64,000 nucleotides of DNA from Candidatus Acidiferrales bacterium (GTDB lineage: Bacteria > Acidobacteriota > Terriglobia > Acidiferrales > UBA7541): the NCBI GenBank assembly GCA_035934015.1, contig DASYYH010000007.1, forward strand, positions 1,750-65,749. Reading direction: 5' to 3'. The notes beneath the pieces are model-generated. The model did no database searches, was not told the DNA's origin, and was given only the letters and a program-made list of their open reading frames with translations. This document shows, piece after piece, positions 4,187 through 32,641 of the stretch (its first letter is position 1; every line of letters starts with the position of its first letter). Position numbers and translations under genes: made by a program.

Positions 4187-4334
4187 GGCATGGATTTAAC
4201 CACAATTGAAAACTAAAGTCTGCATGCCATGGCCGAACGCTCGTGAAGTGGCGTGAGGATACGTATAGAAAAACGCAATCGCTCCCGCTTGCGATTTCGA
4301 GTTGCTGTGGTAGCATCGCCGGTATACTTTTCGC

Positions 4335-5540: not shown

Positions 5541-5681
5541 TGGCGAGTGGCTAGCGAAAGGCGAAGACATCGCGCGGATGAAACGCGCGACAGGAAGTGG
5601 AACAGAGACTCCGTTTACGTCGCGGCTGAAGCCACGACCCACAACCCACAACGATTCGGCTTGATGGCGGGTGAGCGATAA

Positions 5682-6992
5682 GTGGAAAGCGAAGACAGAA
5701 GCACGCGTAGGGCGAGGGTGCTGAGCGGGATGCGGCCGACGGGGCGGCTGCACATCGGGCATTACTTCGGCGCGCTGTCGAATTGGCTGAAGATGCAGGA
5801 GGAATATGACTGCTTCTACTTTGTGGCGGACTGGCACGCGCTGACGACGCATTACGCGGATAGTTCGCAGGTGGCGGCGAACACGCTGGAAGTGGCAACC
5901 GACTGGCTGGCCGTGGGGCTCGATCCGAAGAAAGCGACGATTTTCATTCAGTCGAGCGTGCCGGAGCATGCGGAGCTGCATCTGCTGCTGTCGATGATTA
6001 CGCCGCTTTCGTGGCTCGAGCGCGTCCCGACGTACAAAGAGCAAATCGAGAATTTGCGCGACAAAGATTTGGGGACGTATGGATTTTTGGGTTATCCGCT
6101 GCTGCAGGGCGCGGATATTGTGATGTACGGCTTGCCCGCCGCGGCGGGTGAACCCGGGCAGAAGCTGTTGGTGCCAGTGGGAGAGGATCAGGCGCCGCAC
6201 ATTGAGATGACGAGAGAGATTGTGCGGAGATTTAATGTTCATTTCGGGGTTGAATTAGATTCGGCTCTTTGGAGCAACGAGTACGTCCTTAGAGAAGTAT
6301 GGTCTCACGTTACGTCTGAAACGATAAAATCCGTCGCAGGTCAAACGCCAATTTTCGAAGAGTTGTTCCCACTTGCAATAAAGAAATATATCGCCGAGAT
6401 AGGTTTTGATAATTTCGTCGCGAAATGCCCACAAGCGGAACCTTTTGTACGAAGGCGCGCCATCCTGCAAGAGCCGGATGTGATTCTCACCGAAACGCCG
6501 CGGGTGCCGGGGACGGATGGGCGGCGGATGGCGAAAAGTTACGGGAACGCGATATGGCTGAGCGACACGCCGGAGGAAATTCGCGCGAAAGCCAAGAATA
6601 TGATGACGGACCCGCAGCGCGTTAAGCGGACGGACCCGGGGCGGCCGGAAGTTTGTCCGGTGTTTGCGTACCACAATTTGTTTCCGGAGAAAAAATCGGC
6701 GGAGGATTGCGCGCGCATCGAGCGTGTGAACCGCGAATGCCGCACGGCGGCGATCGGCTGCGTTGACTGCAAGAAGCTGATGGCCGATGCGCTCGTGAAA
6801 TGGATTGAGCCGATTCAGGCGCGTCGCGCGAAATACGAAAAGAACCCGCGGGAAGTGTGGCAAGTCCTCGAGGATGGTTCGCGACGGGCGAAGAAAGTGG
6901 CGGAAGGAACAATGGAGCGTGTGCGGAAAGCGGTCTTCAACTGGGAGGGGGCGGGCAGACGTGCTCCTTCGCCGGTGACGCAAGGGAAGTGA
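5682..6992 (+). CDS. trpS: Tryptophan--tRNA ligase (Thermotoga-like form with C-terminal Cys cluster and an internal 71-aa insertion)
   Basis: HIGH-type motif PTGRLHIGHY, ADWHALT, VGEDQAPHIE, and KMSKS-type motif RMAKSYGN. Cys cluster C-x27-C-x6-C-x2-C at 6654-6770. Confidence 0.9.
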   Translation: MESEDRSTRRARVLSGMRPTGRLHIGHYFGALSNWLKMQEEYDCFYFVADWHALTTHYADSSQVAANTLEVATDWLAVGLDPKKATIFIQSSVPEHAELHLLLSMITPLSWLERVPTYKEQIENLRDKDLGTYGFLGYPLLQGADIVMYGLPAAAGEPGQKLLVPVGEDQAPHIEMTREIVRRFNVHFGVELDSALWSNEYVLREVWSHVTSETIKSVAGQTPIFEELFPLAIKKYIAEIGFDNFVAKCPQAEPFVRRRAILQEPDVILTETPRVPGTDGRRMAKSYGNAIWLSDTPEEIRAKAKNMMTDPQRVKRTDPGRPEVCPVFAYHNLFPEKKSAEDCARIERVNRECRTAAIGCVDCKKLMADALVKWIEPIQARRAKYEKNPREVWQVLEDGSRRAKKVAEGTMERVRKAVFNWEGAGRRAPSPVTQGK

Positions 6993-7927: not shown

Positions 7928-8716
7928 ATGGCGGCAAACGCACAACCCGATTACAGAATTCAGTTGCCGGTCTATGAAGGGCCGCTCGATTTGCTGCTGG
8001 ATCTGGTGCGCAAGCAGGAAATCGACATCCACAACATTCCCATCGCGAAAATCACGAAGCAGTATCTCGATTACCTGCATCAGCTGGAAAAACTGAATGT
8101 GGATATTTCCGCGGACTTTCTCTACATGGCGGCGACTCTGATTCATATCAAATCGAAGATGCTGCTGCCGGTGGACCCGCTCGCGCCGGCCGAAGAGCAG
8201 GGCGACCCGCGCGAGGAATTGGTGCATCGTCTGCTGGAGCACGAGAAATTCAAAAATGCGGCGCAGATGCTCTACGAGAAGCAACAGCTCGAAGCGCACG
8301 TGTGGTCGCATCCGGATCTTTCGCTTTACGAAGGCGAAGAGACGGAAGGCGAACTGGTTGTTTCGCTCGTGGATCTGGTGAAAGTGTTTCAGCAGGTGCT
8401 CGAACGGCGGCGGGAAGTCGCGAAAGTCGAGCTGACGCACGAAACCGTGACCGTGGCGCAGATGATGGAGCAATTGCGCGAGCGGCTGCTGACGAATGAC
8501 GAAGCGGTGTCGCTGACGGAGTTTTTCGAAGCTTGCCCGTCGCGGCGTGCGATGATTGTGGCGCTGCTGGCGGTGCTCGAACTGGTGAGGCTGCAAGCGG
8601 TGGCGCTGGTGCAGGAGAAAATGTTCGGCGACGTGATGCTGCGGAAGCACAAAAGGTTCGAAATCACGTTTGAAGGCGGCGAGGCGATCGCGAAGATTGA
8701 CGAAGAATATTTGTGA
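7928..8716 (+). CDS. scpA: Segregation and condensation protein A
   Basis: YRIQLPVYEGPLDLLLDLVRKQEIDIHNIPIAKIT is the canonical ScpA N-terminus. ATG 7928 is preferred over the upstream alternative start at 7862. Confidence 0.9.
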   Translation: MAANAQPDYRIQLPVYEGPLDLLLDLVRKQEIDIHNIPIAKITKQYLDYLHQLEKLNVDISADFLYMAATLIHIKSKMLLPVDPLAPAEEQGDPREELVHRLLEHEKFKNAAQMLYEKQQLEAHVWSHPDLSLYEGEETEGELVVSLVDLVKVFQQVLERRREVAKVELTHETVTVAQMMEQLRERLLTNDEAVSLTEFFEACPSRRAMIVALLAVLELVRLQAVALVQEKMFGDVMLRKHKRFEITFEGGEAIAKIDEEYL

Positions 8717-8804
8717 GAAGGCGACGGAAGGCCTCACGTCAGTTCCGGCATAGGACGCCGGAACGGGGCGTGAGCTACAAGGGACGCAAAGGGCGAGAGA
8801 AAAT

Positions 8805-9542
8805 ATGACGGAACAGGAATTGATGAGCGCACTGGAAGCGATCATTTACGCGGCGGACGAGCCAGCAACGCTGGAGCAGATCGTCGCCGCGGTGGGCGGA
8901 GAGAAGGCGGAGGTGCGCGCGGCGCTCGATAAGCTCGTCGCGTCGTACGCGCCGGATGAACGCGGCATCGAAATTCGCAAAGTGGCGAGCGGCTGGAAGA
9001 TGTATACGAAGGCGCAGCACCACGATGCGGTGCGACGATTCATCAAGGGACTGCGGCCGCCGCTACGGCTGACGATTCCGGCGCTCGAAACGCTTTCGGT
9101 GATCGCGTACAAGCAGCCGGCGACGCTGCCGGAGATCAACGAAATCCGCGGCGTGAACTGCGGCGGCGTCGTGAAGACGCTGCTTGAACGGCGGCTGATC
9201 ACGACGGCGGGGCGCAAAGACGCGGTCGGGCGGCCAATTTTGTATCGCACATCAAAGGATTTCCTGATGCGCTTCGGACTTGCGGATTTGGATGAGCTGC
9301 CGAGCTTGAAGGAGTTTGAGCAACTGGCGCAGGCGGCGCTGGGCGCGGATGAAGGAATTGCGCCGACGGAGCCGGAGGAAACGGTTCAGGGCAATGGCGA
9401 GGAAATGGCGGCATCTGTGAAACCGACAACCGAAAGTGACGCGACGGAAGGAAACATGACACAGATTGCGCCACAGGAAAGTCTGTCCGCGGAGCAAGAC
9501 TTGCCGGATAGCGAAGGTCAAAGTAAGGCCGCAGGCGCATAA
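8805..9542 (+). CDS. scpB: Segregation and condensation protein B
   Basis: LEAIIYAADEPATLEQI and winged-helix repeats. The acidic C-terminal tail is lineage-specific. It directly follows scpA. Confidence 0.9.
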   Translation: MTEQELMSALEAIIYAADEPATLEQIVAAVGGEKAEVRAALDKLVASYAPDERGIEIRKVASGWKMYTKAQHHDAVRRFIKGLRPPLRLTIPALETLSVIAYKQPATLPEINEIRGVNCGGVVKTLLERRLITTAGRKDAVGRPILYRTSKDFLMRFGLADLDELPSLKEFEQLAQAALGADEGIAPTEPEETVQGNGEEMAASVKPTTESDATEGNMTQIAPQESLSAEQDLPDSEGQSKAAGA

Positions 9543-9574
9543 AGTATCTCCACGAACCGGATGAACGAAATTCC

Positions 9575-10393
9575 ATGGAAGAGCGACTACAGAAAATTAT
9601 TGCGCGTGCGGGCATCGCTTCGCGGCGAAATGCGGAGGAGCTGATTTCGTCGGGTCAGGTGGCGGTGAATGGACGCGTGGTGACCGAACTCGGCACGAAA
9701 GCGGATGCGGGGCGGGATCATATCCGCGTGGCAGGCAAATTGTTGCGGCCTGCCGGAGCGAAGGTTTACATCGCGCTGAATAAGCCTGACAGCGTCGTGG
9801 CCACGATGCGCGACCCGGAGGGCCGGCGAACAATCGCGGATTTTGTGCGTGGCGTGCCGGGGCGCGTTTTTCCCGTGGGACGACTGGAGTATCACGCATC
9901 CGGATTGCTGCTGCTGACGAATGACGGCGAACTGGCGAATCGCGTGATGCGCGCGCACGCTCTGCCGCAGATTTATCTGTGCAAGACTTCGGGCACACCA
10001 AGCGAATCCGAGATTCGCGACGCGGAGCGGGCGGGGCGTGCAAAAATGGAGCGCGCCAAGGGATTGCCGGGCGGATGGTGGCAAGTAACGCTTTCGGGAG
10101 CTACGAAGGACCAATTCCGGCAAGCACTGATGGCGAGCGGGCATGCGGTCGATAAAATGAAACGCATTGCCATCGGATATCTGGAAATGGGACCGCTCGC
10201 GCCCGGGCAATACAGGCATTTGACGAACGAAGAAGTGGGCGAGCTCGAGCGCGCGCTCGCGCGGGCGGAGCGTCACGCGGATGCTTCAAAAGAAACAGAG
10301 AGCGGGAGACGACCGGCGCCAAGAGCAAAGTCACGAAGTTTCCACGCGCGAAAGCGAAGCCAGTCAGCGAGGGAACGATTTCCGAGGCGCTAA
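9575..10393 (+). CDS. rluB: Pseudouridine synthase, RluB/RsuA family
   Basis: N-terminal S4 domain RLQKIIARAGIASRRNAEELISSGQVAVNG and catalytic GRLEYHASGLLLLTNDG. Basic C-terminal tail. Confidence 0.85.
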   Translation: MEERLQKIIARAGIASRRNAEELISSGQVAVNGRVVTELGTKADAGRDHIRVAGKLLRPAGAKVYIALNKPDSVVATMRDPEGRRTIADFVRGVPGRVFPVGRLEYHASGLLLLTNDGELANRVMRAHALPQIYLCKTSGTPSESEIRDAERAGRAKMERAKGLPGGWWQVTLSGATKDQFRQALMASGHAVDKMKRIAIGYLEMGPLAPGQYRHLTNEEVGELERALARAERHADASKETESGRRPAPRAKSRSFHARKRSQSARERFPRR

Positions 10394-20762: not shown

Positions 20763-21933
20763 AGCAAATTTTCCCCAGAATGGCCGAATGCTGCGCGCCG
20801 GTTGCGCTTGGCAGATTATTCGCGTTCTGACGCCAGGCTTCGTAGGCGAGTACAGCGAAGGCGTAGGCCTCCTTCGCGTCGCCGGGAACGCCGAGAGCTT
20901 CTGCCGGGATGATTTTGAGCGAGGGCAAGAGAGCGCAGAGATAAGCAATAAGCAGCGGGTTGCGCGCGCCGCCGCCGGAGACAATAAGTTGCCTGACGTG
21001 AGTGCGCGGAAAGATGAAGCGCTTGAACGCCTGCGCAATCGATGCGGCGGTGAATACCGTCGCTGTGTGAAGGAGATCGGCAGAGCGAATGTGGTTGCGC
21101 TTGGCCGCGCTCAATAGCTTTTCCACGTAAATCGCACCAAATTCTTCGCGGCCCGCGGTTTTCGGCGGACGCTTGGAGAAAAACGGGTGCGCAAGCCACT
21201 GTTTCAGGAATCCCGGTAGCAAGCGGCCTGTGCGTGCGAGCTGGGAATCCCGGTCAAAATGCAAGCGGCCACGCGTGAAATGCGCGGCCAGTGCGTCGAG
21301 GATCATATTGCCCGGCCCAGTGTCGAAGGCGAAAACGTCTTGCGGGCGCGCACCGGCCGGAATCGCTGTGACATTGGCGATGCCGCCGATATTGAGCGCC
21401 ACGCGGCCTCTGTGCGGATGGCGATAAAGCAGATAGTCGACGAACGGCACGAGCGGCGCGCCTTGGCCGCCGGCGGCAATGTCGGCAGGGCGAAAATCAG
21501 CAATTGCGGTGATGCCGGTGCGCTCGGCGATGATGGCGGGTTCGCCAATCTGAAGTGTGGAGGAGACGCGAGCGCCGAGAAATGCGCCGGGCGCGCCTTG
21601 ATGAAAGATAGTCTGTCCGTGAGAACCAATGAGCGCGACGCTTCGAGGCGAGATGCGGAAGCGGTGGCAGGCGCGTAAAGCGGCGGCAGCAAACAATTCG
21701 CCCAGGCGAAAGTTCAGCTGACTGATTTCGCGTGTCGTCGTAGGAGCGCCGCTGGATACGCGCAAGACGGCTTCGCGAACAGCTGCGGGGTAGGGAAACG
21801 CGGCGAAATGCTTGAGGCGCGCCCGGGGCGCGGCCGGCCCTCCGGAGATGCCGACAAGCGCGACATCGATGCCATCGGCGGACGTGCCGGACATCAAGCC
21901 GAGAACAAGGATTTCGCGCGAGCGCCGAGTCAC
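20746..21933 (-). CDS. anmK: Anhydro-N-acetylmuramic acid kinase
   Basis: [25 protein letters not shown] and GGGARNPLL. The start overlaps the mutS stop by 4 nt. Confidence 0.9.
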
Positions 21934-24629
21934 GAGAGCCGCTTCTTGAGCGCCGCGAGGAGATTGAGCGCTTCGAGGGGTTTCAAATTATCGAGATCGG
22001 CAGAGCGCAGCGCGTCGAGCACGGTTTGGTCGGCAGCCGTGAACATGAGCGGTTGCGCTGGCGCCGAGCCGGGGGAAAGTTCTTCGGTGAGTTGATGCTC
22101 GCTCTTTTCGTGCTCGGCGAGGACTTCGCGAGCGCGTTGAATGACGCTCGCAGGAAGACCTGCCAAGCGAGCGACTTCGATGCCATAGCTTTTGTCGGCC
22201 GTTCCGGGTTCGACGCGACGAAGAAAAATAATTTCGCTTCCGGCCTCTCGCACAGAAACGTGGACGTTCTTAATGCCGGGGAAAAGGCGCTCGAGTTCGG
22301 TCAGCTCATGGTAGTGCGTGGCAAAGAGCGTGCGCGGGCGCGCATTTTCGTGCAGATGCTCGACGACGGCCCAGGCAATCGACAGGCCGTCGAAGGTTGC
22401 CGTGCCGCGGCCGACTTCGTCGAGAAGAACAAGGCTTCCCGGAGTAGCGGTATTCAAAATGGCCGCAACTTCGCTCATTTCCACGAGGAACGTGGAACGG
22501 CCGCGCGCGAGATTATCGGACGCGCCAATGCGCGTGAAGATGCGATCGACGAGCGGGAGTCGAGCCTCGACCGCGGGAACAAACGAGCCGATTTGCGCCA
22601 TGACGATGATGAGTGCGGCCTGCCGAAGATACGTCGACTTGCCGCCCATGTTTGGACCGGTGATCAGCAGGATGGGCTGTGTCGCGTCGTCGAGATAGAG
22701 GTCATTGGGGACGAAGCGTTCGCCGCGCTGTTCGAGAAGGGTCTCGATCACGGGATGACGGCCTCCGGCGATGAACAGTTCGCCGCGTCCCGCGCCCGAG
22801 TGTGCATGGCCGGATTCGCCTTCCGTGAAAGACGGGCGCGAATAGTTACGCTCCGCAGCCAAGCGCGCAAAATTGGCGAGCACATCGAGCTGAGCAATTG
22901 CCGCCGACGTTTGGCGCAGGCGCGGCGCTTGCGCGGCGATGGTTTCGCGAATTTCGCGGTACAGGCGGCGTTCGATCTCAATGATGCGCCCATCGGCCGC
23001 GAGCACCTTGCGTTCGTAATCTTTCAGCTCCGGCGAAGTGAAGCGTTCGGCGTTGACGAGGGTTTGCTTGCGCTCATAGTCGGCAGGCGCTAGCTGAAGA
23101 TTGGCCTTGGAAATCTCGATGTAATAGCCGAAGACACTGTTGAAACGAATCTTGAGCGAGCCGATGCCTGTTCTCTGGCGTTCGCGCTCCTCCATCGCGG
23201 CAATCACTTGCTTCGAGGACTTGCTCAAGTCGCGCAGTTCATCGAGTTCCGCATCGTAACCGCGGCGAATCATGCCGGGTTCGGCCGGCTGCGCGGGAGG
23301 ATCATCGGCAATCGCACCGGCAATGAGGTCACGAACATCCACGAGTTCATCGAGCTGGACACATAACGCCGCGAGACGCTCGCTCTTGCAACGTGAGAGA
23401 AAGCCACGAAGAAGCGGAACGGCCGTCAGGGAACGCCTGAGCGCGAGAAGATCGCGAGGCGTCGCTGTCCCGAGCGTGACACGGCTGGTGAGACGTTCGA
23501 GGTCGAAGATATTTTCGAGGTCGCGGCGGATCTCGTCGCGGACCACGGTTGCAGATTTCAGCTCGGCGACGGCGTCGAGACGGGCTTGAATGTCCTCTAA
23601 AGAAATCGCTGGCCGGAGAATCCAAGAACGCAGCAAACGCGCGCCCATGCCAGTTGCGGTTCCATCAAGGGACGCGAGAAGTGTGGCCGAGTCGTCATCT
23701 CCGGCGCTGGGTTGGATGAGTTCGAGATTGCGCACTGTGACGTGATCGAGAATAAGCGCGTCCTGCTGCTCGTAGTAAATGATGCGGTCGAGATGCTCCA
23801 GCCCGCGACCGGCGGGACGGAGTTGCATCGTCGCTGTGCCATTGCTGGAATCGGTTGCGCCAATCGCCGATGTTTCGCGCAGGTAGTGCAGCAGGCCGCC
23901 CGCCGCGCCAATAGCTTCCGCGTGGCCCGACAGACCGAAACCATCGAGGGAAGCCACGCGAAATTGTTGCTCGAGCAGACGCTGAGAATAGGATTTCTCA
24001 AAAACCCATTCGTCGAGTCGCGTCTCGGTGGCGCCCAGACCGCCTATTGCAGCGCCGGTGGCTGGTGAAAAGAGTGTCGCTGGCTGTGCGAGCAGGATTT
24101 CTCGCGGACGAAGGATTTCGAGTTCGTTACGCAGACGAAGCTCAGCGTCGATGCCTATGAATTCTGTCGCACGAAATTCGCCAGTCGAGAAATCGACAAA
24201 GGCCAGGCCAATCGTTTCGCTGCTCCCGTTGCGCGCGACTGCCGCGAGAAAATTGTTTTCGCGGGTTTCGAGAATGGATGAACCTGCAGCCGTGCCGGGA
24301 GTCAACACGCGGATCACTTCGCGGCGGACGATTTTCCTGGTCTGCGAGGGATCTTCCATCTGTTCGCAGATGGCCAGCTTGTGGCCGGCGCGAATCAGAC
24401 GCGCGATGTAGTTCTCTGCCGCATGGTACGGGACGCCGCACATCGGAACGGCCTGGCCTTTCTCCTTATTACGAGACGTGAGCGTGATTTGGAGCTCGCG
24501 CGAGGCGGTAACGGCGTCGTCATAGAAAAGCTCATAGAAATCGCCCAAACGGAAGAGCAGCAACGCACTGGGATGCTGGCGCTTGATGGAGTGATATTGC
24601 CGCATGAGCGGCGTCGTCGGTTCATTCAT
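21930..24629 (-). CDS. mutS: DNA mismatch repair protein MutS
   Basis: [11 protein letters not shown] mismatch-binding N-terminus, Walker [12 protein letters not shown], and [17 protein letters not shown] 24629 is preferred. Confidence 0.95.
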
Positions 24630-24761
24630 GCTGGCGCCATCGGGGTTGCAAACGAAAACGATTATCGCGGGTGCGAGAGGGTTTGGCAACATCAGGGAAG
24701 GAGAAGTTAACCATGAAGATGTTTCGTCAAAACAGGAACCGCGTATACTCTGATTTCAACG

Positions 24762-25376
24762 ATGAAGGCAAAGCACGAAATCGAGATCAAACTGCGCGTC
24801 GACGACCTGCGCGAGGTGCTCAGAACCCTTCGTCGGCTCGGAGCAAAATGCCTGGGCACCTTGCACGAGCGGAATACGCTTTTCGATACCAAGGAGCGCG
24901 ATTTCCAGCGGCAGGGCTCCATTCTGCGCATTCGCCAGGAACGCCCGGCGAGTTTGCCTGGTAAAACTCGCAGACGGACGCGAGGGTTCGAATCGGGAGA
25001 AGGGCTGCTGACGTTTAAGGGATTGGTGACTGGCCAGCGTGGGGGAAAATATAAGCTGCGTGAGGAAATCGAGCATCGCACCGCGAGGGTATCCCGGCTG
25101 CGGCGGATTCTCAGAAAACTGGGCCTTCGACCATGGTTCCGATATGAAAAGTATCGTACGCGATACCGCCTGAGGGCTTTTCCGGGGCTGGAAGTGGACC
25201 TCGACGAGACTCCGATAGGTCTCTTTCTGGAGCTGGAGGGGCCGAAGCGAGCTATTGACCGCGCCGCAAAGAAGCTTGGCTACAGCAAGTCCGACTATGT
25301 GGTCGACTCCTACCTTGAACTCTACGGCTCCGATTGCCTGATGCAAGGACGCAAACTGGGCAACATGGTGTTCTAA
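24762..25376 (+). CDS. CYTH-domain protein (class IV adenylate cyclase / triphosphatase fold)
   Basis: N-terminal EIEIKLRV (ExExK) signature and alternating charged beta-strand pattern. Confidence 0.75.
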   Translation: MKAKHEIEIKLRVDDLREVLRTLRRLGAKCLGTLHERNTLFDTKERDFQRQGSILRIRQERPASLPGKTRRRTRGFESGEGLLTFKGLVTGQRGGKYKLREEIEHRTARVSRLRRILRKLGLRPWFRYEKYRTRYRLRAFPGLEVDLDETPIGLFLELEGPKRAIDRAAKKLGYSKSDYVVDSYLELYGSDCLMQGRKLGNMVF

Positions 25377-25410
25377 CCGTAAAAATCTCGTGAAGAATTG
25401 CACTCTTTTC

Positions 25411-25439
25411 TTGACAAAGTTCGCAACTGCACTTAACAA
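25411..25439 (+). promoter_or_regulatory. Putative sigma70-type promoter of the sensor/transporter operon
   Basis: TTGACA (25411-25416), 17-nt spacer, TAACAA (25434-25439). Confidence 0.4.
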
Positions 25440-25449
25440 GGAACTGGAA

Positions 25450-25716
25450 GTGGAGAACGAAGAAATGGAGTCTTCCTCTAATCCGGAGCCTGGGGGTCGA
25501 TACCTGCCTGAGCCAAGAATCGGGGCTTGGGTAGGGATTGTTATGGGTTGCACGTCCGGCAAGATGCCGGAAGGGCAGTTCGGTACTCAGGAGGGCCAAG
25601 CCGGCCAGGGCTGAGTTTGCGGGGTATTATCGCGCCCGTGGTCGGAAACGAGTCCGGCCGCGGGTATTTTTTTGTCTGGACATGGAGTGATTAGGCCGGG
25701 TCAAGCAGGGAAGGAG
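25450..25716 (+). promoter_or_regulatory. Long structured 5' leader (candidate riboswitch/attenuator, class unassigned)
   Basis: About 265 nt are non-coding between the putative promoter and the start codon. Local helices are CCAAG/CUUGG (25513-25530) and CCGGC/GCCGG (25556-25570). The leader ends in an intrinsic terminator. Confidence 0.5.
25635..25673 (+). terminator. Intrinsic terminator inside the leader
   Basis: 11-bp stem CCCGUGGUCGG / CCGGCCGCGGG (two G-U pairs), 8-nt loop, then U-A-U7 (T run 25667-25673). It lies 44 nt upstream of ATG 25717. Confidence 0.75.
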
Positions 25717-26967
25717 ATGGCGATGCTGCACGCGACGGAATTATTTGGGGCCGAGGCCTACGACGCCCGGGGAAACTTTGTCGGCCGGGTAAAGGAGTTT
25801 TATGTCGAACCGGCCGAGCATGGCAATCGCATCAGCCGAATTCTGCTCTCCCGAGGGAAGTATCAGCCGCTCGTTGCCAAGCATGACCAGATTGGATTTG
25901 TGGCCCCGGGGACATTGCGCCTGACTGTCGAAGAAGGGGAACTCGAGCACTTCCGGCCAAATGACGCTTGGCTGGCGGTGCGAAAGGATCTGCTGGATCA
26001 GCAAATTATCGACACGCGAGGGCGGAAGGTAGTGCGCGTGAACGATCTCGACATGACTGAGCAGCGAACTAACGGCAACGTCGAGCTGCGAATTACGGGC
26101 GTTGATGTGGGGCTTACGGGGGCTGCAGGCAGATTGCTGCAGGGTATTGCCACACCAGCCATGATTCGGCGTGTCCAGGCAAAGTTGCCGACGCGGCTGA
26201 TCCCTTGGGAGTTCTGCAACCTCATAGAGCCCGACCCGCTCCGGCGCGTAAAGCTGCGGCTGAGGAGCGACAAATTGGCACACATGCATCCGGCGGATCT
26301 TGCGGAGCTGATGGAGGAATTGTCGCCGGACGAGCGGAGGTCCATCATCGATTCGCTGGATGAAGAATCGGCCGCTGAGGTCATCGCAGAGTTGGATAAA
26401 CGCCTTAAGACTCAGGTAGTCGAAACGCTTGATCCAGGAAGGGCTGCGGATATTCTCGAAGAAATGCCACCGGACGATGCCGCAGATGTCCTGGCGGAAC
26501 TCTCGCCAGAAACCTCGCGTGAGGTGCTGCGCGAGATGCCCCGGCGCGAGGCGGCTGAGGTGCGCGGGCTACTTCAATTTGAAGAGAACACAGCCGGCGG
26601 GATGATGACGACGGAAATTGTCGAAGTCGGCGAAGACGCGACGCGAGGAGAAGTTGTCGACTACATACGCTTTCATGAGGTTGTGCTGGACCAACTCGAC
26701 AGCGTCATCGTAATCAACCGGGAGGCCGCGTTTGCGGGCACGGTCTCCGTAGCGAGGCTGCTTCTTGCCGCGCCAGAGCAGCGTATGGCGGAGCTTTTGG
26801 GTGAGTCGCGCATTTCGGTGGGCGCGACGGTCGAGGACAAGGAAGTCTTTGAAACGTTCGATAAGTATAACCTGCGCAGCTTGACCGTCGTGGACGTGGA
26901 GAATCACCCCATCGGCGCAATTGCGGTTGACGACATTGTGAGCAGAATGCACGCAAAGCTGGGATAG
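25717..26967 (+). CDS. Soluble PRC-barrel + MgtE N-domain + CBS-pair protein (MgtE cytoplasmic sensor module without a pore domain)
   Basis: SD ggaaggag abuts ATG 25717 (a second in-frame ATG is at 25723). Acidic helical repeats ADLAELMEELSPDE, AAEVIAELD, AADILEEMPPDDAADVLAEL and AAEVRGLL. CBS pair (GGMMTTEIVEV..., ...LRSLTVVDVENHPIGAIAVDDIV). No hydrophobic helices. Confidence 0.8.
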   Translation: MAMLHATELFGAEAYDARGNFVGRVKEFYVEPAEHGNRISRILLSRGKYQPLVAKHDQIGFVAPGTLRLTVEEGELEHFRPNDAWLAVRKDLLDQQIIDTRGRKVVRVNDLDMTEQRTNGNVELRITGVDVGLTGAAGRLLQGIATPAMIRRVQAKLPTRLIPWEFCNLIEPDPLRRVKLRLRSDKLAHMHPADLAELMEELSPDERRSIIDSLDEESAAEVIAELDKRLKTQVVETLDPGRAADILEEMPPDDAADVLAELSPETSREVLREMPRREAAEVRGLLQFEENTAGGMMTTEIVEVGEDATRGEVVDYIRFHEVVLDQLDSVIVINREAAFAGTVSVARLLLAAPEQRMAELLGESRISVGATVEDKEVFETFDKYNLRSLTVVDVENHPIGAIAVDDIVSRMHAKLG

Positions 26968-28284
26968 ATGAACTGGACTTCGATTTTCGGGACCACGGAA
27001 TCCTGGCGTACCCGCGGGCGCGAAATGCGCCGGCAAGGGCGCCATTGGCGGCGAAGCATTGCGCTTTTTCTTGCCGTTGTAGGACCGGGCCTCATTACGT
27101 CCAACGTCGACAACGACGCGGGCGGAATCACAACCTATTCGGTCACCGGCGCACAGTTGGGTTATGCGCTCTTGTGGACGATGATTCCTCTCACTATCGC
27201 TTTATACGTCAGCGAGGAAATGTGTGCACGCATGGGTGTGGTCACGGGCAAAGGGCTATCGGACCTGATCCGCGAGGAATTTGGTTTCCGCTCGACGTTT
27301 TTCGTAATGCTGGCCGGATTGGCGGTGGATTTTTCGAATACCGTTGCGGAGTTTGCCGGTGTCGCGGCATCCATGCAAATCTTCGGGATTAGCAAGTACA
27401 TTGCAGTGCCGCTTGCGGCTATCTTTGTCTGGGTGCTGGTGGTTCGCGGAACGTACCGCCAAGTGGAGAAAATTTTTCTGGTCGCGTGCGTGTTCTACGT
27501 TTCCTATGTTGGGTCGGCGTTCTTGGCCAGGCCAAACTGGTTACTCGCCGCCAAGCAGACGTTCGTTCCTGAGATTCACATGAACGTAGGATACCTGCTG
27601 GTCTTGACTGCGCTGATTGGCACGAGCGTCGCTCCATGGCAGTTTTTTTACCTTCAGGCCGGATACGTGGAGAAGAAAGTCGGCCCGAAGCAGTACAAAC
27701 ACGCACGCATGGATGTACTCGTGGGCAGCATCACATGCATGGTCGTTGTGTTTTTCATTATCGTATGCACGGCGGCGACGCTAAACGCCTCGGGACACAC
27801 GCAAATCAACGATGCGGCGGATGCGGCTAAAGCGCTTGTGCCTCTTGCAGGTAAATGGGCCGGAGGGCTTTTCGCCTTTGGCTTGTTGAACGCTTCGCTT
27901 TTTTCTGCTTCCGTACTTCCTCTTTCGACGGCACACGTCATCTGCGAGGGGCTGGGCTTCGAGGCGGGGATTGATCGTAAGCTTGGCGATGCGAAGATGT
28001 TCTACGGACTTTACACCGCGCTGATCGTCGCTGGCGCGGGAGTCATCCTGATTCCCAAAGCGCCGCTGCTGAAGATCTTGGTTCTTTCGCAGGTGGCCAA
28101 TGGAATCTGGCTGCCGTTCGTCATGGTTCTCATTTTGCTGCTTGTGAATCGCAAGGACTTGATGGGCGAGCGCGTGAACGGCAAATTCTTCAACATCGTA
28201 GCGTGGGTGATCAGCGTTGCTCTGATCGTGGTGACTGCAGCTCTCGCGTACGTCACGATTTTCACACCCGCCGGCGCAGGATGA
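26968..28284 (+). CDS. NRAMP/SLC11-fold transporter with NRMT-type (Mg2+-like) binding-site substitutions
   Basis: ATG immediately follows the upstream TAG. About 11 TM helices. The TM1 motif reads GPGLITSNVDNDAGG (DAGG in place of DPGN). TM6 reads GTSVAPWQFF (T..AP.W in place of A..MPH). Confidence 0.8.
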   Translation: MNWTSIFGTTESWRTRGREMRRQGRHWRRSIALFLAVVGPGLITSNVDNDAGGITTYSVTGAQLGYALLWTMIPLTIALYVSEEMCARMGVVTGKGLSDLIREEFGFRSTFFVMLAGLAVDFSNTVAEFAGVAASMQIFGISKYIAVPLAAIFVWVLVVRGTYRQVEKIFLVACVFYVSYVGSAFLARPNWLLAAKQTFVPEIHMNVGYLLVLTALIGTSVAPWQFFYLQAGYVEKKVGPKQYKHARMDVLVGSITCMVVVFFIIVCTAATLNASGHTQINDAADAAKALVPLAGKWAGGLFAFGLLNASLFSASVLPLSTAHVICEGLGFEAGIDRKLGDAKMFYGLYTALIVAGAGVILIPKAPLLKILVLSQVANGIWLPFVMVLILLLVNRKDLMGERVNGKFFNIVAWVISVALIVVTAALAYVTIFTPAGAG

Positions 28285-28394
28285 GCGGTTCGTAACGGGC
28301 GACCAGGATGCGCAGCGATGCGGTTTCCCTGCAGTTGCTTCGCCTCGTGCGGCTATGCTAGGTTTTTTATTCGGATGAGCATTGTGAGATCTCG

Positions 28395-29207
28395 GTGAAA
28401 CCGACCGAACTACTGAAATCCACCCGCGCCGAGGAAATCGCGCTCCTTGACCAATTGGATCTGAGGCGCCTCCCCAGGCACGTGGCCATTATCATGGACG
28501 GCAACGGGCGCTGGGCAGAGCGGCGCCATCTGCCGCGCATCGCGGGACATCGCGCTGGCGTGAAAGTGGCGCGCGAGATCATCGAGACGTGCGCCCGCCT
28601 CAAGGTGCCCGCTTTGACGCTCTACGCGTTCTCGCTCGAGAACTGGCGTCGCCCGAGGGCCGAGATCGATTTTTTGATGCGGCTCCTGCGCGAATACCTG
28701 AAAAAAGAGCTTCCTTCGATTCATAAGAACAATATTCAACTGCTGATCATCGGCCGCTCGGCGCAATTGCCCGAGGCGGTTCGGCACGACATTGAAAAGG
28801 CAATGCGGCTGACGGCCCAAAACACCGGTATGAAGCTTATCGTCGCGCTCAACTATGGCGGGCGCGCAGAGCTCGTGGATGCGTTCAATGCCATTCTCGA
28901 TCATGTTCGGCTGAACGGTCTTTCGGCGTTTCATGCGGATGAGGAGACGATTTCGAACAAGCTCTATACGGCCGGGCTGCCCGATCCCGATTTGCTGATT
29001 CGCACGAGCGGCGAAATGCGCGTGAGCAATTTCCTATTGTGGCAGATCGCGTATGCCGAGCTTTATATTACGGAAGCTCTGTGGCCCGATTTTTCACGCG
29101 AAAAACTGCTCGAAGCCTTCGTCAACTTCCAGCAACGCGAGCGCCGCTACGGCGGCTTGGCAACCGCGGACGGGCATCGCAACGGAAGGTATGGCGGAGG
29201 AAGATGA
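28395..29207 (+). CDS. uppS: Di-trans,poly-cis-undecaprenyl-diphosphate synthase
   Basis: HVAIIMDGNGRWA, YAFSLENWRRP and RTSGEMRVSNFLLWQIAYAEL. Confidence 0.95.
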   Translation: MKPTELLKSTRAEEIALLDQLDLRRLPRHVAIIMDGNGRWAERRHLPRIAGHRAGVKVAREIIETCARLKVPALTLYAFSLENWRRPRAEIDFLMRLLREYLKKELPSIHKNNIQLLIIGRSAQLPEAVRHDIEKAMRLTAQNTGMKLIVALNYGGRAELVDAFNAILDHVRLNGLSAFHADEETISNKLYTAGLPDPDLLIRTSGEMRVSNFLLWQIAYAELYITEALWPDFSREKLLEAFVNFQQRERRYGGLATADGHRNGRYGGGR

Positions 29208-29262
29208 AACCGCTGCTTACGAATTTCTTTTCGATTTGCTCTTCCATTGAGACAATGACGCA

Positions 29263-30123
29263 GTGCTGAAGCGCATCGCAACTGCGGCGATCCTGATTCC
29301 CATTGTTGTTTTGGTGGTGTATTGGGGACCGTCCTGGCTGGTTGCCGCGCTGGCCGCGGTTGTAGGGTTGCTGGCGATGTTTGAATTCTTCAAGCTCACT
29401 TCCCAGATGGGCCTGCGAGCGTTTCGCCTGTGGACGATGATTTGCGCTGTAGGATTGTTTTTTGTTCAGTGGACATCGGGCGCAGCAGAGGTCCACACGC
29501 TTGGCGCGAATACCCTCCTGATTCAAGGCTTGCCAAGCGATTACGCTTCAATCGAAGCTGTTTTCCTAACGTTTCTGTTTGGGACGGCCTGCATTGCAGT
29601 GCTGGGTAAAATCGCCCTGGCGGATTTGCTTCCCGGCATTTGTGCCAGCGCAGCCGCATTCTTGTTCGTGGCATTGCCTTTCAGCTACGTGGCGAGAATG
29701 GATGGAGCGCGGAGCGGCCCTGTCCTTGTTCTTTTTGCGCTTGTCGTTGTGTGGGCTGGTGATACGGTCGCTTACTTCGTGGGAAAATCGATTGGCCGCT
29801 TGAAAATGGCGCCGGCGCTTTCGCCGAAGAAAACTTGGGAAGGCGCCGCAGGCAACGTGCTTGGTTCGCTGATCGTCGGTTACTGTTTTGCGCGCTGGCA
29901 GAATGGCGATTGGGTCGCATGGCTTGCAACTGCCGCGCTGGCCAACATCGCCGGGCAGGTGGGCGATCTGGTAGAATCAGCATATAAGCGCGGCGCGGGA
30001 GTCAAGGACTCCGGCGCAATGCTTCCAGGGCACGGAGGAATGTTGGATCGCATCGACAGTTTGATTTTTGCTGCTCCGGTGGTATGGCTTGCTGCCGGAT
30101 GGCTGCTGCAAAACCGCCCGTGA
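29263..30123 (+). CDS. cdsA: Phosphatidate cytidylyltransferase
   Basis: Polytopic membrane protein with C-terminal SAYKRGAGVKDSGAMLPGHGGMLDRIDS. Confidence 0.9.
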   Translation: MLKRIATAAILIPIVVLVVYWGPSWLVAALAAVVGLLAMFEFFKLTSQMGLRAFRLWTMICAVGLFFVQWTSGAAEVHTLGANTLLIQGLPSDYASIEAVFLTFLFGTACIAVLGKIALADLLPGICASAAAFLFVALPFSYVARMDGARSGPVLVLFALVVVWAGDTVAYFVGKSIGRLKMAPALSPKKTWEGAAGNVLGSLIVGYCFARWQNGDWVAWLATAALANIAGQVGDLVESAYKRGAGVKDSGAMLPGHGGMLDRIDSLIFAAPVVWLAAGWLLQNRP

Positions 30124-30136
30124 CGCAACTCTCCCA

Positions 30137-31309
30137 GTGAAACGCATCTCCATTCTCGGATCGACTGGCTCCATTGGATGCCAATGCCTGAAGGTGGTGG
30201 ACTCTCTTCCCGGAAAATTTGAAGTTATCGGAATAGCGGCTGGGAATAACGTCGAGCTCGCGGCCGAACAGACGATCAAGTATCGGCCAAAGGTTGTTTC
30301 GGTGAGCACCTGCGAAGGCGCAAAGCAGCTTCGGGAGCGTCTCACCGGTGCAAAGATCGAGCCGATTCCGGAAATGCTATGTGGTGCCGAAGGCCTGGAG
30401 CGCGTTGCAACGCATCCAGAGGCCGACACGGTTCTTTCGGCAGCCGTAGGCGTCGTGGGCTTACCAGCGACCTACAAGGCGGTTCAGTTAGGCAAGAATT
30501 TGGCGCTCGCCAATAAAGAAGTGCTCGTTGCCGCAGGGGAATTGGTGATGGCCGAAGCCGAACGGCAGAGGAAAGCAGTTCTGCCGGTGGATAGTGAACA
30601 CAATGCCATTCATCAATGCCTGCGTGCGGGCGAAAGACGCGAGGTGAAGCGGCTTGTGCTGACCGCGTCAGGCGGCCCATTTCGCAAAACGCCGGTTTCC
30701 GAGCTAAAGAATGTAACTCCTGAGCAGGCTCTGGCGCATCCTAACTGGAAGATGGGCAAGAGAATCACAACGGATTCGGCGACGCTGATGAACAAAGGCT
30801 TCGAGGTGATCGAGGCGCGCTGGCTTTTCGGCATGCAGCCAGCGCAGATTGATGTTGTCATTCATCCGCAGTCTACGATTCATTCGATGGTAGAATTTGT
30901 GGACGGTTCAATTCTGGCACAGCTTGGTCCGACCGACATGCGCATGCCCATCCAATATGCGCTAACCTATCCAGAGCGCGTGGCATCCAACGGATTTGCC
31001 CTCGATTGGAGCAGCCTGAAGTCGCTCGATTTCGAGCCTGTTCCGGCAGGGAAGTTTCCGTGTTTAACGTTGGCAATGCGTGCGATGCAGCAGGGCGGGG
31101 CATTGCCGTGTGCTTTAAATGCTGCAGATGAAGAAAGCGTCGCGGCATTTCTCGACGGGCGGCTCGGATTTACAGGGATCGCGGAAGTGATCGAGCAGGT
31201 GCTTGACCGGATGCCGGGCACGACGTTAACGAAAATGGAAGATGTCCTCGATGCGGATCGCGAGGCTCGTCGCATGGCGCGGGAAGAAATCGCGAAGAGG
31301 AAGAATTAG
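30137..31309 (+). CDS. dxr: 1-deoxy-D-xylulose-5-phosphate reductoisomerase
   Basis: GTG 30137 gives VKRISILGSTGSIG. Also LANKE, DSEHNAIHQC and HPNWKMG. Confidence 0.95.
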   Translation: MKRISILGSTGSIGCQCLKVVDSLPGKFEVIGIAAGNNVELAAEQTIKYRPKVVSVSTCEGAKQLRERLTGAKIEPIPEMLCGAEGLERVATHPEADTVLSAAVGVVGLPATYKAVQLGKNLALANKEVLVAAGELVMAEAERQRKAVLPVDSEHNAIHQCLRAGERREVKRLVLTASGGPFRKTPVSELKNVTPEQALAHPNWKMGKRITTDSATLMNKGFEVIEARWLFGMQPAQIDVVIHPQSTIHSMVEFVDGSILAQLGPTDMRMPIQYALTYPERVASNGFALDWSSLKSLDFEPVPAGKFPCLTLAMRAMQQGGALPCALNAADEESVAAFLDGRLGFTGIAEVIEQVLDRMPGTTLTKMEDVLDADREARRMAREEIAKRKN

Positions 31310-32641
31310 ATGACACATAGTTGGGTTGGCGTGGTGGCGGCGATCGTTGGCTTAGGGATCATGATCCTTGTGCACGAATGGGGTCATTATATCGTGGCGC
31401 GTTGGTGCGGCGTCCGCGTCGAAGTGTTTTCCATCGGATTTGGGACGCGGATTTTCGGATGGAAACGCGGGGACACGGACTTCCGTCTCGCGGCTTTTCC
31501 CTTCGGCGGGTACGTCAAGATGGCAGGCGAAAACCCTGCCGAAGATCGCGCCGGAGCGCCGGATGAGCTTCTCTCCAAATCGCGCTGGCAGCGGTTTCTG
31601 ATTGTTGTCGCCGGGCCGGTGATGAATATTGTGCTGGCCATAGTGATGATGTGGGGCCTGTATATCGTCGGTGTTCCCACGCCGAGGTTCGTGCACCAGG
31701 CCGCACAGGTCGCGGGAGTTGTGCCGAATTCGCCCGCCGCAAAGGCGGGAATTCATCCCGGCGACAAAATCGTCGAAGTCAACAATGCGAAGGTATCAAC
31801 CTGGGAGCAAGTGATTTCCAACTCGGGCATTCTGCCTGGGGCGAAAATCTCTCTCGAAGTGGAACGCGCGAGCAAACTCATCCCCATAGACGTAGACGTC
31901 CCGAAGAATGTCTTTGACCCCTATGAAGTGACGGGATATCCACACGTGAGTGTTGTCTTGGTGGATTCTGTCGCGCCCGGGTTCCCCGCGGCGCAGGCCG
32001 GTTTGGAGGCTGGAGATCGGATCGTGAGCGTCAATGAGCAATCGGACCCCAATCCGACGGCTATTGCGGCGCTCATTCGCGATTCCGGTGGCAAGCCCGT
32101 CGCCATTGAGGTTCGACGTGACGGCAAGGAAATCTCCAAGGTCATCCAGCCGAAGTACGAAGACCCCGGAGGTGGCGGTGGAAAGCGCTGGGTGATTGGC
32201 GCTGTGTTTGCTCCGGGCGATACAGTACGAAGTTCGTTGTCTGTCTCCGAAGCAGCAGCGCAATCTTGGTCCGAAAATGTCGGAAATGTGAAAGAGGTCG
32301 TTACAGTTTTTGCCGGGCTCTTCTCGGGGCGATTCTCACTCAAACAAATGGCAGGTCCAGTCGGAATCGTGAGCATGTCCACGCAAGCCGCTAAGATGGG
32401 AATGGCGGAGTTCATTGCCTTCATGGCTTTGCTGAGCGTCAATCTCGGGATCGTGAATTTGCTCCCGATTCCCATCCTTGACGGCGGGCGCATCCTGGTA
32501 ATGGCTATCGAGGGTTCGATTCGAAGAGATCTGAGCGTAAGAGTGCAAGAGCGTTTGTTGACCGCAGGACTTGTTTTCATTCTTGCTGTGTTCGGGTTTG
32601 TGATGTATTACGACATCGCCAGACTTTTCCCAAATCACTAA
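31310..32641 (+). CDS. rseP: Site-2 (RIP) zinc metalloprotease RseP
   Basis: HEWGHY (HExxH), two PDZ-like segments, and NLLPIPILDGG. Confidence 0.9.
   Translation: MTHSWVGVVAAIVGLGIMILVHEWGHYIVARWCGVRVEVFSIGFGTRIFGWKRGDTDFRLAAFPFGGYVKMAGENPAEDRAGAPDELLSKSRWQRFLIVVAGPVMNIVLAIVMMWGLYIVGVPTPRFVHQAAQVAGVVPNSPAAKAGIHPGDKIVEVNNAKVSTWEQVISNSGILPGAKISLEVERASKLIPIDVDVPKNVFDPYEVTGYPHVSVVLVDSVAPGFPAAQAGLEAGDRIVSVNEQSDPNPTAIAALIRDSGGKPVAIEVRRDGKEISKVIQPKYEDPGGGGGKRWVIGAVFAPGDTVRSSLSVSEAAAQSWSENVGNVKEVVTVFAGLFSGRFSLKQMAGPVGIVSMSTQAAKMGMAEFIAFMALLSVNLGIVNLLPIPILDGGRILVMAIEGSIRRDLSVRVQERLLTAGLVFILAVFGFVMYYDIARLFPNH

Follow-up and report, generated by a model that had tools for sequence, protein, structure and literature searches.

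What would the cytosolic sensor module of the Mg2+ channel MgtE do in a protein that has no pore, encoded directly before a transporter of an unrelated fold? The question is raised by two adjoining plus-strand open reading frames (ORFs) in a 64,000-nucleotide stretch of DNA from an uncultured Candidatus Acidiferrales bacterium (Acidobacteriota, Terriglobia; NCBI GenBank assembly GCA_035934015.1, contig DASYYH010000007.1, positions 1,750 to 65,749 of the forward strand). We call this whole stretch the window and count positions from its first letter. The first ORF runs from 25672 (TTG) or 25717 (ATG) to 26967 and the second from 26968 to 28284, with a junction of 0 nt: the TAG of gene 1 (26965-26967) is followed directly by the ATG of gene 2 at 26968. 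An earlier note on this DNA, made from the sequence alone, had described the two genes as abutting, and the ORF coordinates bear this out.

That note took the pair for an Mg2+ uptake system in which an MgtE-type sensor regulates the transporter in trans, and was not aware of such a partnership having been characterised. It had in fact been reported in 2014 together with a tested pair (Shin et al., 2014, PLoS Genet; PMC4072509); the partnership is already described, and its mechanism is uncharacterised in the literature that we searched. Searches of papers available without subscription found no later work on the partner. Here we develop a reading with three parts, in which gene 2 would be an NRMT importer, gene 1 a sensor that gates it in trans, and a conserved leader 5' of gene 1 an attenuator of the operon. 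Its mechanism is inferred throughout from sequence, and for the reading as a whole we put the chances at even. What appears to be new here, and probably is, is the conserved leader with its upstream open reading frame (uORF) and terminator; the domain-level conservation pattern of the partner and the synteny numbers are new beside it. The two genes and the ribosome-binding site of the first are as follows.

25711-25716, plus strand: Shine-Dalgarno sequence AAGGAG of gene 1; in relatives, GAAGGAG is conserved 6-7 nt 5' of the ATG
25723-26967, plus strand: gene 1, soluble PRC / beta-domain / MgtE_N / CBS-pair protein of 414 amino acids; alternative starts at 25717 and 25672
26968-28284, plus strand: gene 2, transporter of 438 amino acids assigned to the NRMT clade of SLC11 by PF01566, the EleNRMT match and a neighbour-joining tree

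Because AAGGAG lies 6 nt upstream of the ATG at 25723 and homologues begin MLHATE, this ATG is the likely start of gene 1 (414 amino acids), and the start at 25717 given in the earlier note is probably two codons early.

The transporter and its substrate

Gene 2 matches the Nramp profile PF01566 with 311 bits over 352 of 357 profile positions. Its best relative of solved structure is EleNRMT from Eggerthella lenta (7qia; E=3.6e-98 over 400 residues, 332 bits, ~50% identity), as against ~1e-30 for DraNramp, with 110 bits for the best chain. Neighbour-joining distances from gene 2 are 0.56 to EleNRMT, 0.79 to DraNramp and 0.84 to EcoMntH, and a simple neighbour-joining tree, built with no bootstraps, groups gene 2 with EleNRMT and NRMT representatives rather than with the MntH clades. 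A library-wide search returned 859 clusters (at 50% identity) with E<=1e-30. The assignment turns on two sites, in transmembrane helices 1 and 6 (TM1 and TM6).

27115-27126, plus strand: TM1 site D50-A-G-G53 (canonical D-P-G-N), equal to EleNRMT D55-A-G-G58
27622-27639, plus strand: TM6 site T219-S-V-A222-P-W224 (canonical A-x-x-M-P-H), within GTSVAPW, which aligns column for column with EleNRMT GTTIAPW

The DAGG and TSVAPW motifs to which the earlier note had drawn attention are confirmed by alignment: they fall column for column on EleNRMT and on the DPGN and A..MPH of E. coli MntH, and neither Asn nor Met stands at the coordinating positions. DraNramp likewise has DPGN, and its TM6 motif is A..APH in chain 8e6i. 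In the HMMER alignment, D50, G53, E128, T219, A222 and Q375 of gene 2 correspond to D55, G58, E133, T224, A227 and Q379 of EleNRMT, and all site residues of EleNRMT that have been tested functionally are retained. At the His positions of the helix-6b proton path, gene 2 carries W224 and L229, and EleNRMT Trp and Asn. Among 81 relatives, two of which are truncated at the TM1 columns, D50 and G53 occur in every sequence that has a residue there; T219, P223 and W224 are invariant; A222 is found in 73 and replaced by Thr in 8; and E128 becomes Asn in one. Together, these comparisons make it very probable that gene 2 is a member of the NRMT clade, as the earlier note had proposed.

EleNRMT transports Mg2+ and Mn2+, not Ca2+, without coupling to H+, and mutation of its T224 abolishes the transport of Mg2+ and not that of Mn2+ (Ramanadane et al., 2022; PMC8806188). 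By homology, gene 2 is expected to take up Mg2+ in hydrated form as well as Mn2+, independently of protons, and not to carry Ca2+. The earlier description as an Mg2+ uptake system is therefore right about the Mg2+-type site and too narrow about the cargo, since both EleNRMT (PMC8806188) and the Acidobacterium capsulatum orthologue (PMC4072509) carry Mn2+. That Mg2+ is the physiological substrate seems to us moderately probable.

The locus could instead encode an importer that handles chiefly Mn2+, and Mg2+ only on the side, together with a partner that senses Mn2+ or another cation. The A. capsulatum transporter rescued an Mn2+ mutant fully and an Mg2+ auxotrophy partly, only at low-millimolar Mg2+, which also counts against the reading preferred here, and Shin et al. 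suggested that the partner may respond to Mn2+ (PMC4072509). EleNRMT, too, carries Mn2+, and the M-box (ykoK, RF00380) is missing from the window as from A. capsulatum (PMC4072509). On the other side, the binding site of gene 2 is identical to that of EleNRMT, including the threonine needed for Mg2+ and not for Mn2+ transport (PMC8806188); acidobacterial relatives with transporters 55-60% identical have M-box leaders; and the uORF motif described below resembles Mg2+-responsive uORFs (PMC11552253). Weighing these points, we consider a primary role in Mn2+ import unlikely.

A soluble MgtE-type module without a pore

Gene 1 is made up of four segments.

25723-25962, plus strand: PRC barrel, residues 1-80 (PF05239; beta barrel in the AlphaFold2 (AF2) model, predicted local distance difference test (pLDDT) ~90)
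25975-26262, plus strand: second beta-rich domain, residues 85-180, with motifs LLDQQIIDxxGxKVVRVND, VDVGxRG..RRL and IPWEF
26284-26589, plus strand: MgtE N-domain of acidic helical repeats (PF03448, 97 bits, residues 190-291)
26599-26958, plus strand: CBS pair (Pfam CBS, 24.5 bits); the protein stops where the MgtE plug helix would start

The description of this protein as a pore-less MgtE N-domain with a CBS pair, made in the earlier note, is upheld by the PF03448 and CBS matches and by three further results. The TIGR00400 mgtE profile aligns at positions 19-249 of 450 only, with 137 bits (cut-off 233); Pfam finds no match to the MgtE pore (PF01769) in gene 1; and there is no transmembrane helix, the highest 19-residue Kyte-Doolittle mean being 1.14. 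Residues 181-413 match the cytosolic domain of Thermus thermophilus MgtE (TtMgtE) with E=1.6e-27, and the C-terminus of gene 1 corresponds to about TtMgtE residue 257. Because the plug helix and the pore of five transmembrane helices (5-TM) are absent and the TIGR00400 score lies below its cut-off, gene 1 cannot be a channel and stands outside the MgtE transporter family.

An AF2 model built from a 66-sequence alignment (pLDDT 85) replaced an earlier run on 27 close homologues, which had reached a pLDDT of 65 with an unreliable middle region. It lays the protein out as a barrel (1-80), the second beta domain, a helical MgtE N domain (182-284) and a CBS pair (295-413). The best Foldseek match is the Mg2+-bound cytosolic domain of MgtE, 2yvy (target-normalised TM 0.85, root-mean-square deviation 2.1 A, 230 columns); Foldseek matches are mostly to MgtE and CBS proteins and are uninformative for the beta domains.

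The N-terminal half had been described as two PRC-like segments, of which the first is well founded: PF05239 scores 28.6 bits (cut-off 21.2) at residues 3-47 and 22.7 bits on the isolated segment, and a precomputed PF05239 match is present in most homologues. For the second, Pfam run on isolated residues 83-190 gives no match even at E<=10, a profile-profile comparison with the first barrel gives a weak match (hhalign P=2.5e-4, probability 43%), and the AF2 model is beta-rich with two inserted helices over ~94-180. This second domain is the most conserved part of gene 1, with a mean identity of 57% over 61 homologues (PRC barrel 37%, MgtE_N 54%, CBS 43%) and an invariant motif, LLDQQ(I/V)(I/V)DxxGxKVVRVND.

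Which cation ligands of MgtE persist in gene 1 was read from an alignment to TtMgtE, with site assignments from Maruyama et al., 2018 (PMC5882242) and the native TtMgtE numbering checked via I28, I84, I168, I190 and I242. Counts of conserved ligands refer to 62 sequences, with identity down to 25%, and gene 1 residues are given in 416-residue numbering. The Mg4 ligands D91 and D247 of TtMgtE correspond to D253 and D406 of gene 1, kept in 56 and 56 of the 62 sequences, and the Mg6 ligand D95 corresponds to D257, kept in 61.

Distant homologues in six surveyed loci (individual loci are cited as L with a number: L028, L033, L058, L060, L061 and L069) carry a basic tail (..AWRKKxR..) after the CBS pair, at the place where MgtE has its plug helix; the window protein has no such tail. 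In L008 (4725-5976) the partner is split into two ORFs (profile positions 2-322 and 322-411) by a frameshift, pseudogene formation or assembly error, which recalls the naturally split partner reported for Clostridium acetobutylicum (PMC4072509).

Partner and transporter mostly stay together

We surveyed the neighbourhood of related transporters by a scan of species-representative genomes with a 14-sequence alignment of closer relatives, and took the 80 best from among at least 595 related loci. The sample leans towards transporters with 50% identity or more to the query. A hidden Markov model of gene 1 was run against all ORFs of these loci, 77 of which had enough upstream DNA to be evaluated. 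A full-length partner on the same strand lies within ~400 nt upstream of the transporter in 57 of the 77, as expected for the conserved synteny that the earlier note's reading called for, and further upstream (0.6-5.7 kb) in another 6, so that 63/77 have one within 6 kb. Gene junctions are mostly tight, often overlapping or abutting (-25 to ~+100 nt), across phyla. The full architecture of the partner (positions 1-410) recurs in metagenome-assembled genomes (MAGs) of Smithella, WOR-3, Planctomycetia, Nitrospirota, Binatia and Aminicenantes at 25-34% identity. That the partner family is seen next to NRMT genes only reflects ascertainment, every locus having been fetched by a transporter or leader query.

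Two loci carry more than one transporter gene. L040 has tandem NRMT genes (4263-5522 and 5592-6884) with no MgtE-like partner upstream, and in L068 a divergent Nramp-family gene is encoded in addition on the other strand (8387-9961).

A candidate gate in trans

How might a soluble partner act on the transporter? We propose that gene 1 would bind a cytosolic divalent cation between its N and CBS domains, through the counterparts of the Mg4 and Mg6 ligands. The cation-bound protein would clamp shut as MgtE does, dock on the transporter and slow import, probably by way of the conserved N-terminal beta module that MgtE lacks. The outcome at the protein level would be negative feedback in trans. 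That gene 2 is gated in this way, by a soluble MgtE-type clamp docking through its beta module, is a proposal to which we give a little less than an even chance.

Several observations weigh against it. The plug helix is absent from gene 1, and with it the Mg2 and Mg3 sites, which Hattori et al. reportedly placed on that helix of MgtE. The Mg5 ligands D226 and D250 of TtMgtE are replaced, by N385 and S409 in gene 1, and the Mg7 ligand E59, E221 in gene 1, persists in no more than 32 of the 62 sequences. Because of these three differences, the cation response of gene 1 may differ from that of MgtE. No partner was found in 14 of the 77 loci, from Terriglobales/Acidobacteriaceae, within the 1.3-6 kb of upstream DNA examined. 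Unrelated genes stand between partner and transporter in L031 (3239-5812, a PQQ-repeat protein) and in L074 (2140-5849, a glycosyltransferase, a GMC oxidoreductase and an aldo-keto reductase). Together with the partner-less loci, these arrangements argue that the transporter can work without an adjacent partner. Co-expression of the A. capsulatum partner had no further effect on Mg2+ rescue in B. subtilis (PMC4072509). This last result does not exclude an inhibitory gate, since the assay looked for better rescue at low Mg2+, where a gate that closes at high Mg2+ would not reveal itself.

Alternatively, the partner could be a cytosolic cation and/or adenine-nucleotide sensor, or a metal chaperone, whose PRC-type barrels bind some other target and whose co-expression with the transporter reflects no more than a common role in metal homeostasis. 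PRC barrels serve generally as modules for interaction with protein or RNA, and the loci with an absent or distant partner suit this explanation, as does the lack of effect on co-expression, for which a chaperone alternative was named (PMC4072509). It accounts less readily for gene junctions that remain tight across phyla in most loci, and we judge it improbable, if to no greater degree than an Mn2+ importer.

A conserved leader precedes gene 1

In related loci the 340-nt spacer 5' of gene 1 shows conservation of its DNA sequence. Within it lies a leader (25401-25673), outside the coordinates first described, with four recognisable elements.

25411-25416 and 25434-25439, plus strand: sigma70-like promoter, -35 TTGACA and -10 TAACAA with a 17-nt spacer, in conserved columns
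25465-25614, plus strand: candidate leader peptide uORF, 49 codons and TGA, MESSSNPEPGG...QAGQG, with a conserved ATG
25601-25645, plus strand: candidate antiterminator, a pairing between the uORF 3' end, stop codon included (25601-25614), and the 5' arm of the terminator (25630-25645)
25634-25665, plus strand: intrinsic terminator with a 13-bp stem, followed by a T-run at 25667-25673, from a terminator scan; ~50 nt before gene 1

The promoter consensus is TTGACA-17-TAnnAn, and 12 related loci agree without exception at the columns CA.TCT...CTTGACAAA..C..TTA..A. A simple promoter scan missed this promoter, the -10 rule of the scan requiring T at position 6. Metagenomes scanned with a 19-base promoter pattern yielded 120 loci, 116 of them with the leader, and gene 1 follows ~300-450 nt downstream in every leader locus with enough DNA. 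In all, 13 genomes of the species-representative set and at least 116 metagenome contigs carry the leader. We found it neither in Rfam nor in the literature searchable without subscription. Because the interval 24500-28600 has no Rfam match at E<=1, M-box RF00380 included, we ruled out a divergent M-box or another curated Rfam family. From the 0-nt spacer between the genes and the single promoter and terminator upstream of them, we infer that genes 1 and 2 are co-transcribed.

An ATG ORF of 42-74 codons occurs at the conserved site in 114 of 114 distinct leaders, and in ~100 of these its stop lies 48-62 nt before the T-run of the terminator; for each sequence, 24% of shuffles retain an ORF of the observed length. 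Conservation of the N-terminus is at the peptide level, M-E-x-x-S-S-N-S-E-P-G-S, with the Glu-Pro pair in 95 of the 114 and sequence variants that include SPN, KSE and DQEPLP. At the Pro codon, position 3 is free (1.93 bits, compared with 0 at positions 1 and 2), and over the uORF the mean entropies at codon positions 1, 2 and 3 are 0.84, 0.74 and 1.22. The middle of the uORF is hypervariable, with in-frame length changes.

Helix pairing was counted on 66 leaders at most 88% identical to one another. The terminator stem is 95.9% paired, with compensatory changes. The candidate antiterminator is the minimum free energy fold of 25570-25648; its outer helix, between the 3' box of the uORF and the terminator 5' arm, is 92.9% paired and shows GC->AU (8 sequences) and CG->UA (2) compensations, and its inner helix is 73% paired. 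Terminator and antiterminator are computationally predicted to be mutually exclusive RNA structures that would decide termination. Two other folds were set aside: a whole-leader RNAalifold structure, whose long-range helices are only 70-79% paired, and a fold pairing promoter bases, which are not transcribed.

These elements suggest a second, transcript-level layer of control. The conserved promoter would drive transcription through a leader with a 49-codon uORF and an intrinsic terminator. Efficient translation of the uORF to its stop would melt the antiterminator, let the terminator form and switch the operon off. A ribosome stalled at S-N-x-E-P-G, as at mgtL and corL at low Mg2+, would leave the antiterminator in place and the genes would be transcribed. 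Attenuation of the operon by uORF, antiterminator and terminator is, in our view, probable. Three points tell against so tidy a picture. In the window and the sequences closest to it, the 3' box CAGGGAGGCGAGGCCCGGCCUGA falls in another reading frame than in most leaders; beyond the terminator and the outer antiterminator helix, the remaining helices reach only 70-79% pairing; and the window has no M-box. Because the 3' box is read in different frames, its conservation would be that of an RNA.

Might the leader instead be an independent small gene, for a small protein or small RNA (sRNA), with gene 1 under a promoter of its own? It does have its own promoter and terminator; at 42-74 codons its ORF would encode an unusually long leader peptide, and the ends of that ORF are conserved. 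In most loci, however, only 20-50 nt separate the T-run from the Shine-Dalgarno sequence of gene 1, which leaves no room for a promoter. The hypervariable middle of the ORF and the change of frame over the 3' box, the fixed position of the stop relative to the terminator, and the compensated pairing between box and terminator 5' arm are all at odds with a free-standing gene, and so is the M-box that occupies the same position in relatives. We think a separate small gene very improbable.

The M-box in question (RF00380) scores 115-127 bits and immediately precedes the partner gene in L026 (4438-4622), L027 (4439-4612) and L053 (4343-4520), whose transporters are 56-60% identical; a partial M-box stands upstream in L037 (993-1073). 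Orthologous operons, as annotated from sequence, use either an M-box or a uORF leader, and from the M-box at the same position in related loci we argue that the signal read by the uORF leader would be Mg2+. Putting the attenuation model together with this argument, the leader may be an undescribed Mg2+-sensing leader-peptide attenuator, widespread in Acidobacteriota, that replaced the M-box of sister lineages, with the double beta-barrel of gene 1 as a gating adaptor; this combined proposal is tentative, and we would put it below even odds.

Two further sets of leaders were seen. A second family, ~250-430 nt upstream of gene 1 in a sister clade (L006, L008, L010, L013, L014, L016, L019, L021, L022 and L025), has uORFs of ~50 codons that open with MSASNELEPGPS.../MNVSSEPEPGPS... 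and close with ...AVGWGGFTxG, a T-run coming after them. These uORFs contain ...E-(L/P)-E-P-G-P-S..., an acidic-proline core in common with the window uORF, and the promoter pattern misses them. The leaders of L087, L089, L095, L107, L123, L131, L147, L148, L164, L175, L184, L194 and L197 encode a variant peptide, MSYSLDQEPLP(R/S)RR...RAD. Its EPLPRRR stretch recalls Salmonella MgtL, a resemblance that may be coincidence.

Setting of the locus

Named homologues at 77-87% identity come from MAGs of Candidatus Acidiferrales, Acidoferrales and Terriglobia. The operon is flanked by ORFs at 21930-24692 (minus strand), 24762-25376 (plus strand) and 28395-32641 (plus strand), and a CYTH-domain protein (Pfam, 52 bits) is encoded upstream of it. 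The neighbours appear to be housekeeping genes: to judge by their translations, the minus-strand ORF of 920 amino acids looks like mutS and the ORFs from 28395 onwards look like uppS, cdsA, dxr and rseP. GC content is 0.57 throughout, which gives no sign of a mobile island. Matches to the Acido-Lenti-1 sRNA (RF01687, 39-43 bits) at L035 (11279-11325) and L045 (4191-4240) are unrelated to the operon.

What the locus may mean

The question of what the partner does, which dates from 2014, is narrowed here to its conserved parts, the Mg4/Mg6 clamp ligands and the N-terminal beta module that MgtE lacks. If the partner gates the carrier, one regulatory module would be common to a channel, MgtE, and to a secondary carrier of unrelated fold. 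Should the leader work as proposed, the few known cases of Mg2+ sensing through translation of proline/acidic uORFs would be joined by one from a Gram-negative soil phylum, with intrinsic termination. The uORF and M-box leaders before orthologous operons also offer a natural comparison.

Comparison with known systems

The closest precedent is the NrmT operon. Shin et al. defined NrmT, reported Mg2+ rescue by two C. acetobutylicum proteins and noted, for most NrmT genes, an adjacent gene for an 'MgtE N-terminal cytoplasmic domain' (context in their Fig. S5), naming the C. acetobutylicum CA_C0685 operon and A. capsulatum ACP_2976/ACP_2977 (PMC4072509). The two-gene order is the same as in the window, with a soluble MgtE-like gene directly upstream of an Nramp-related transporter, and the role on which they speculated was 'cytoplasmic feedback regulation of transport' or that of a chaperone. 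They also reported an M-box upstream of NrmT operons in Firmicutes. The A. capsulatum pair belongs to the same phylum as the window, likewise has no M-box and has the same proposed feedback role; it comes from another order, the window being of an Acidiferrales-like MAG lineage, and the window transporter is ~53-57% identical to those of the Acidobacteriaceae loci surveyed. The two N-terminal beta domains, the Mg2+-ligand pattern and the uORF leader did not turn up in a term search of that paper.

EleNRMT is the nearest characterised transporter. The D, G, T, A and Q of its site and the Glu of alpha3 are identical in gene 2, and the proton-path His is replaced in both. A term search of the main text of the EleNRMT paper found no mention of a partner protein (PMC8806188).

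For gene 1 the comparison is with MgtE of T. thermophilus (2yvx, 2yvy, 2zy9). The N domain and CBS pair are homologous and the Mg4 and Mg6 ligands are common to both; unlike MgtE, gene 1 has ~180 extra N-terminal residues (the PRC barrel and the second beta domain), lacks the plug helix and the 5-TM pore, and has lost the Mg5 ligands.

Two known systems resemble the leader. The M-box has the same position, just before gene 1, in the three loci named above and is functionally analogous, and the window leader is a different element. The mgtL and corL uORFs, which belong to the leaders of mgtA and corA in Salmonella and E. coli, are likewise short, have conserved proline and acidic residues and come with two exclusive RNA structures. 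mgtL has fewer than 20 codons, compared with 42-74 in uORFs of the window type. Proline and acidic codons make translation of mgtL and corL dependent on Mg2+, and efficient translation represses the transporter gene (PMC11552253). The window leader differs in that it would use an intrinsic terminator rather than Rho, belongs to another phylum and encodes a peptide that is unrelated apart from the EPLPRRR variant.

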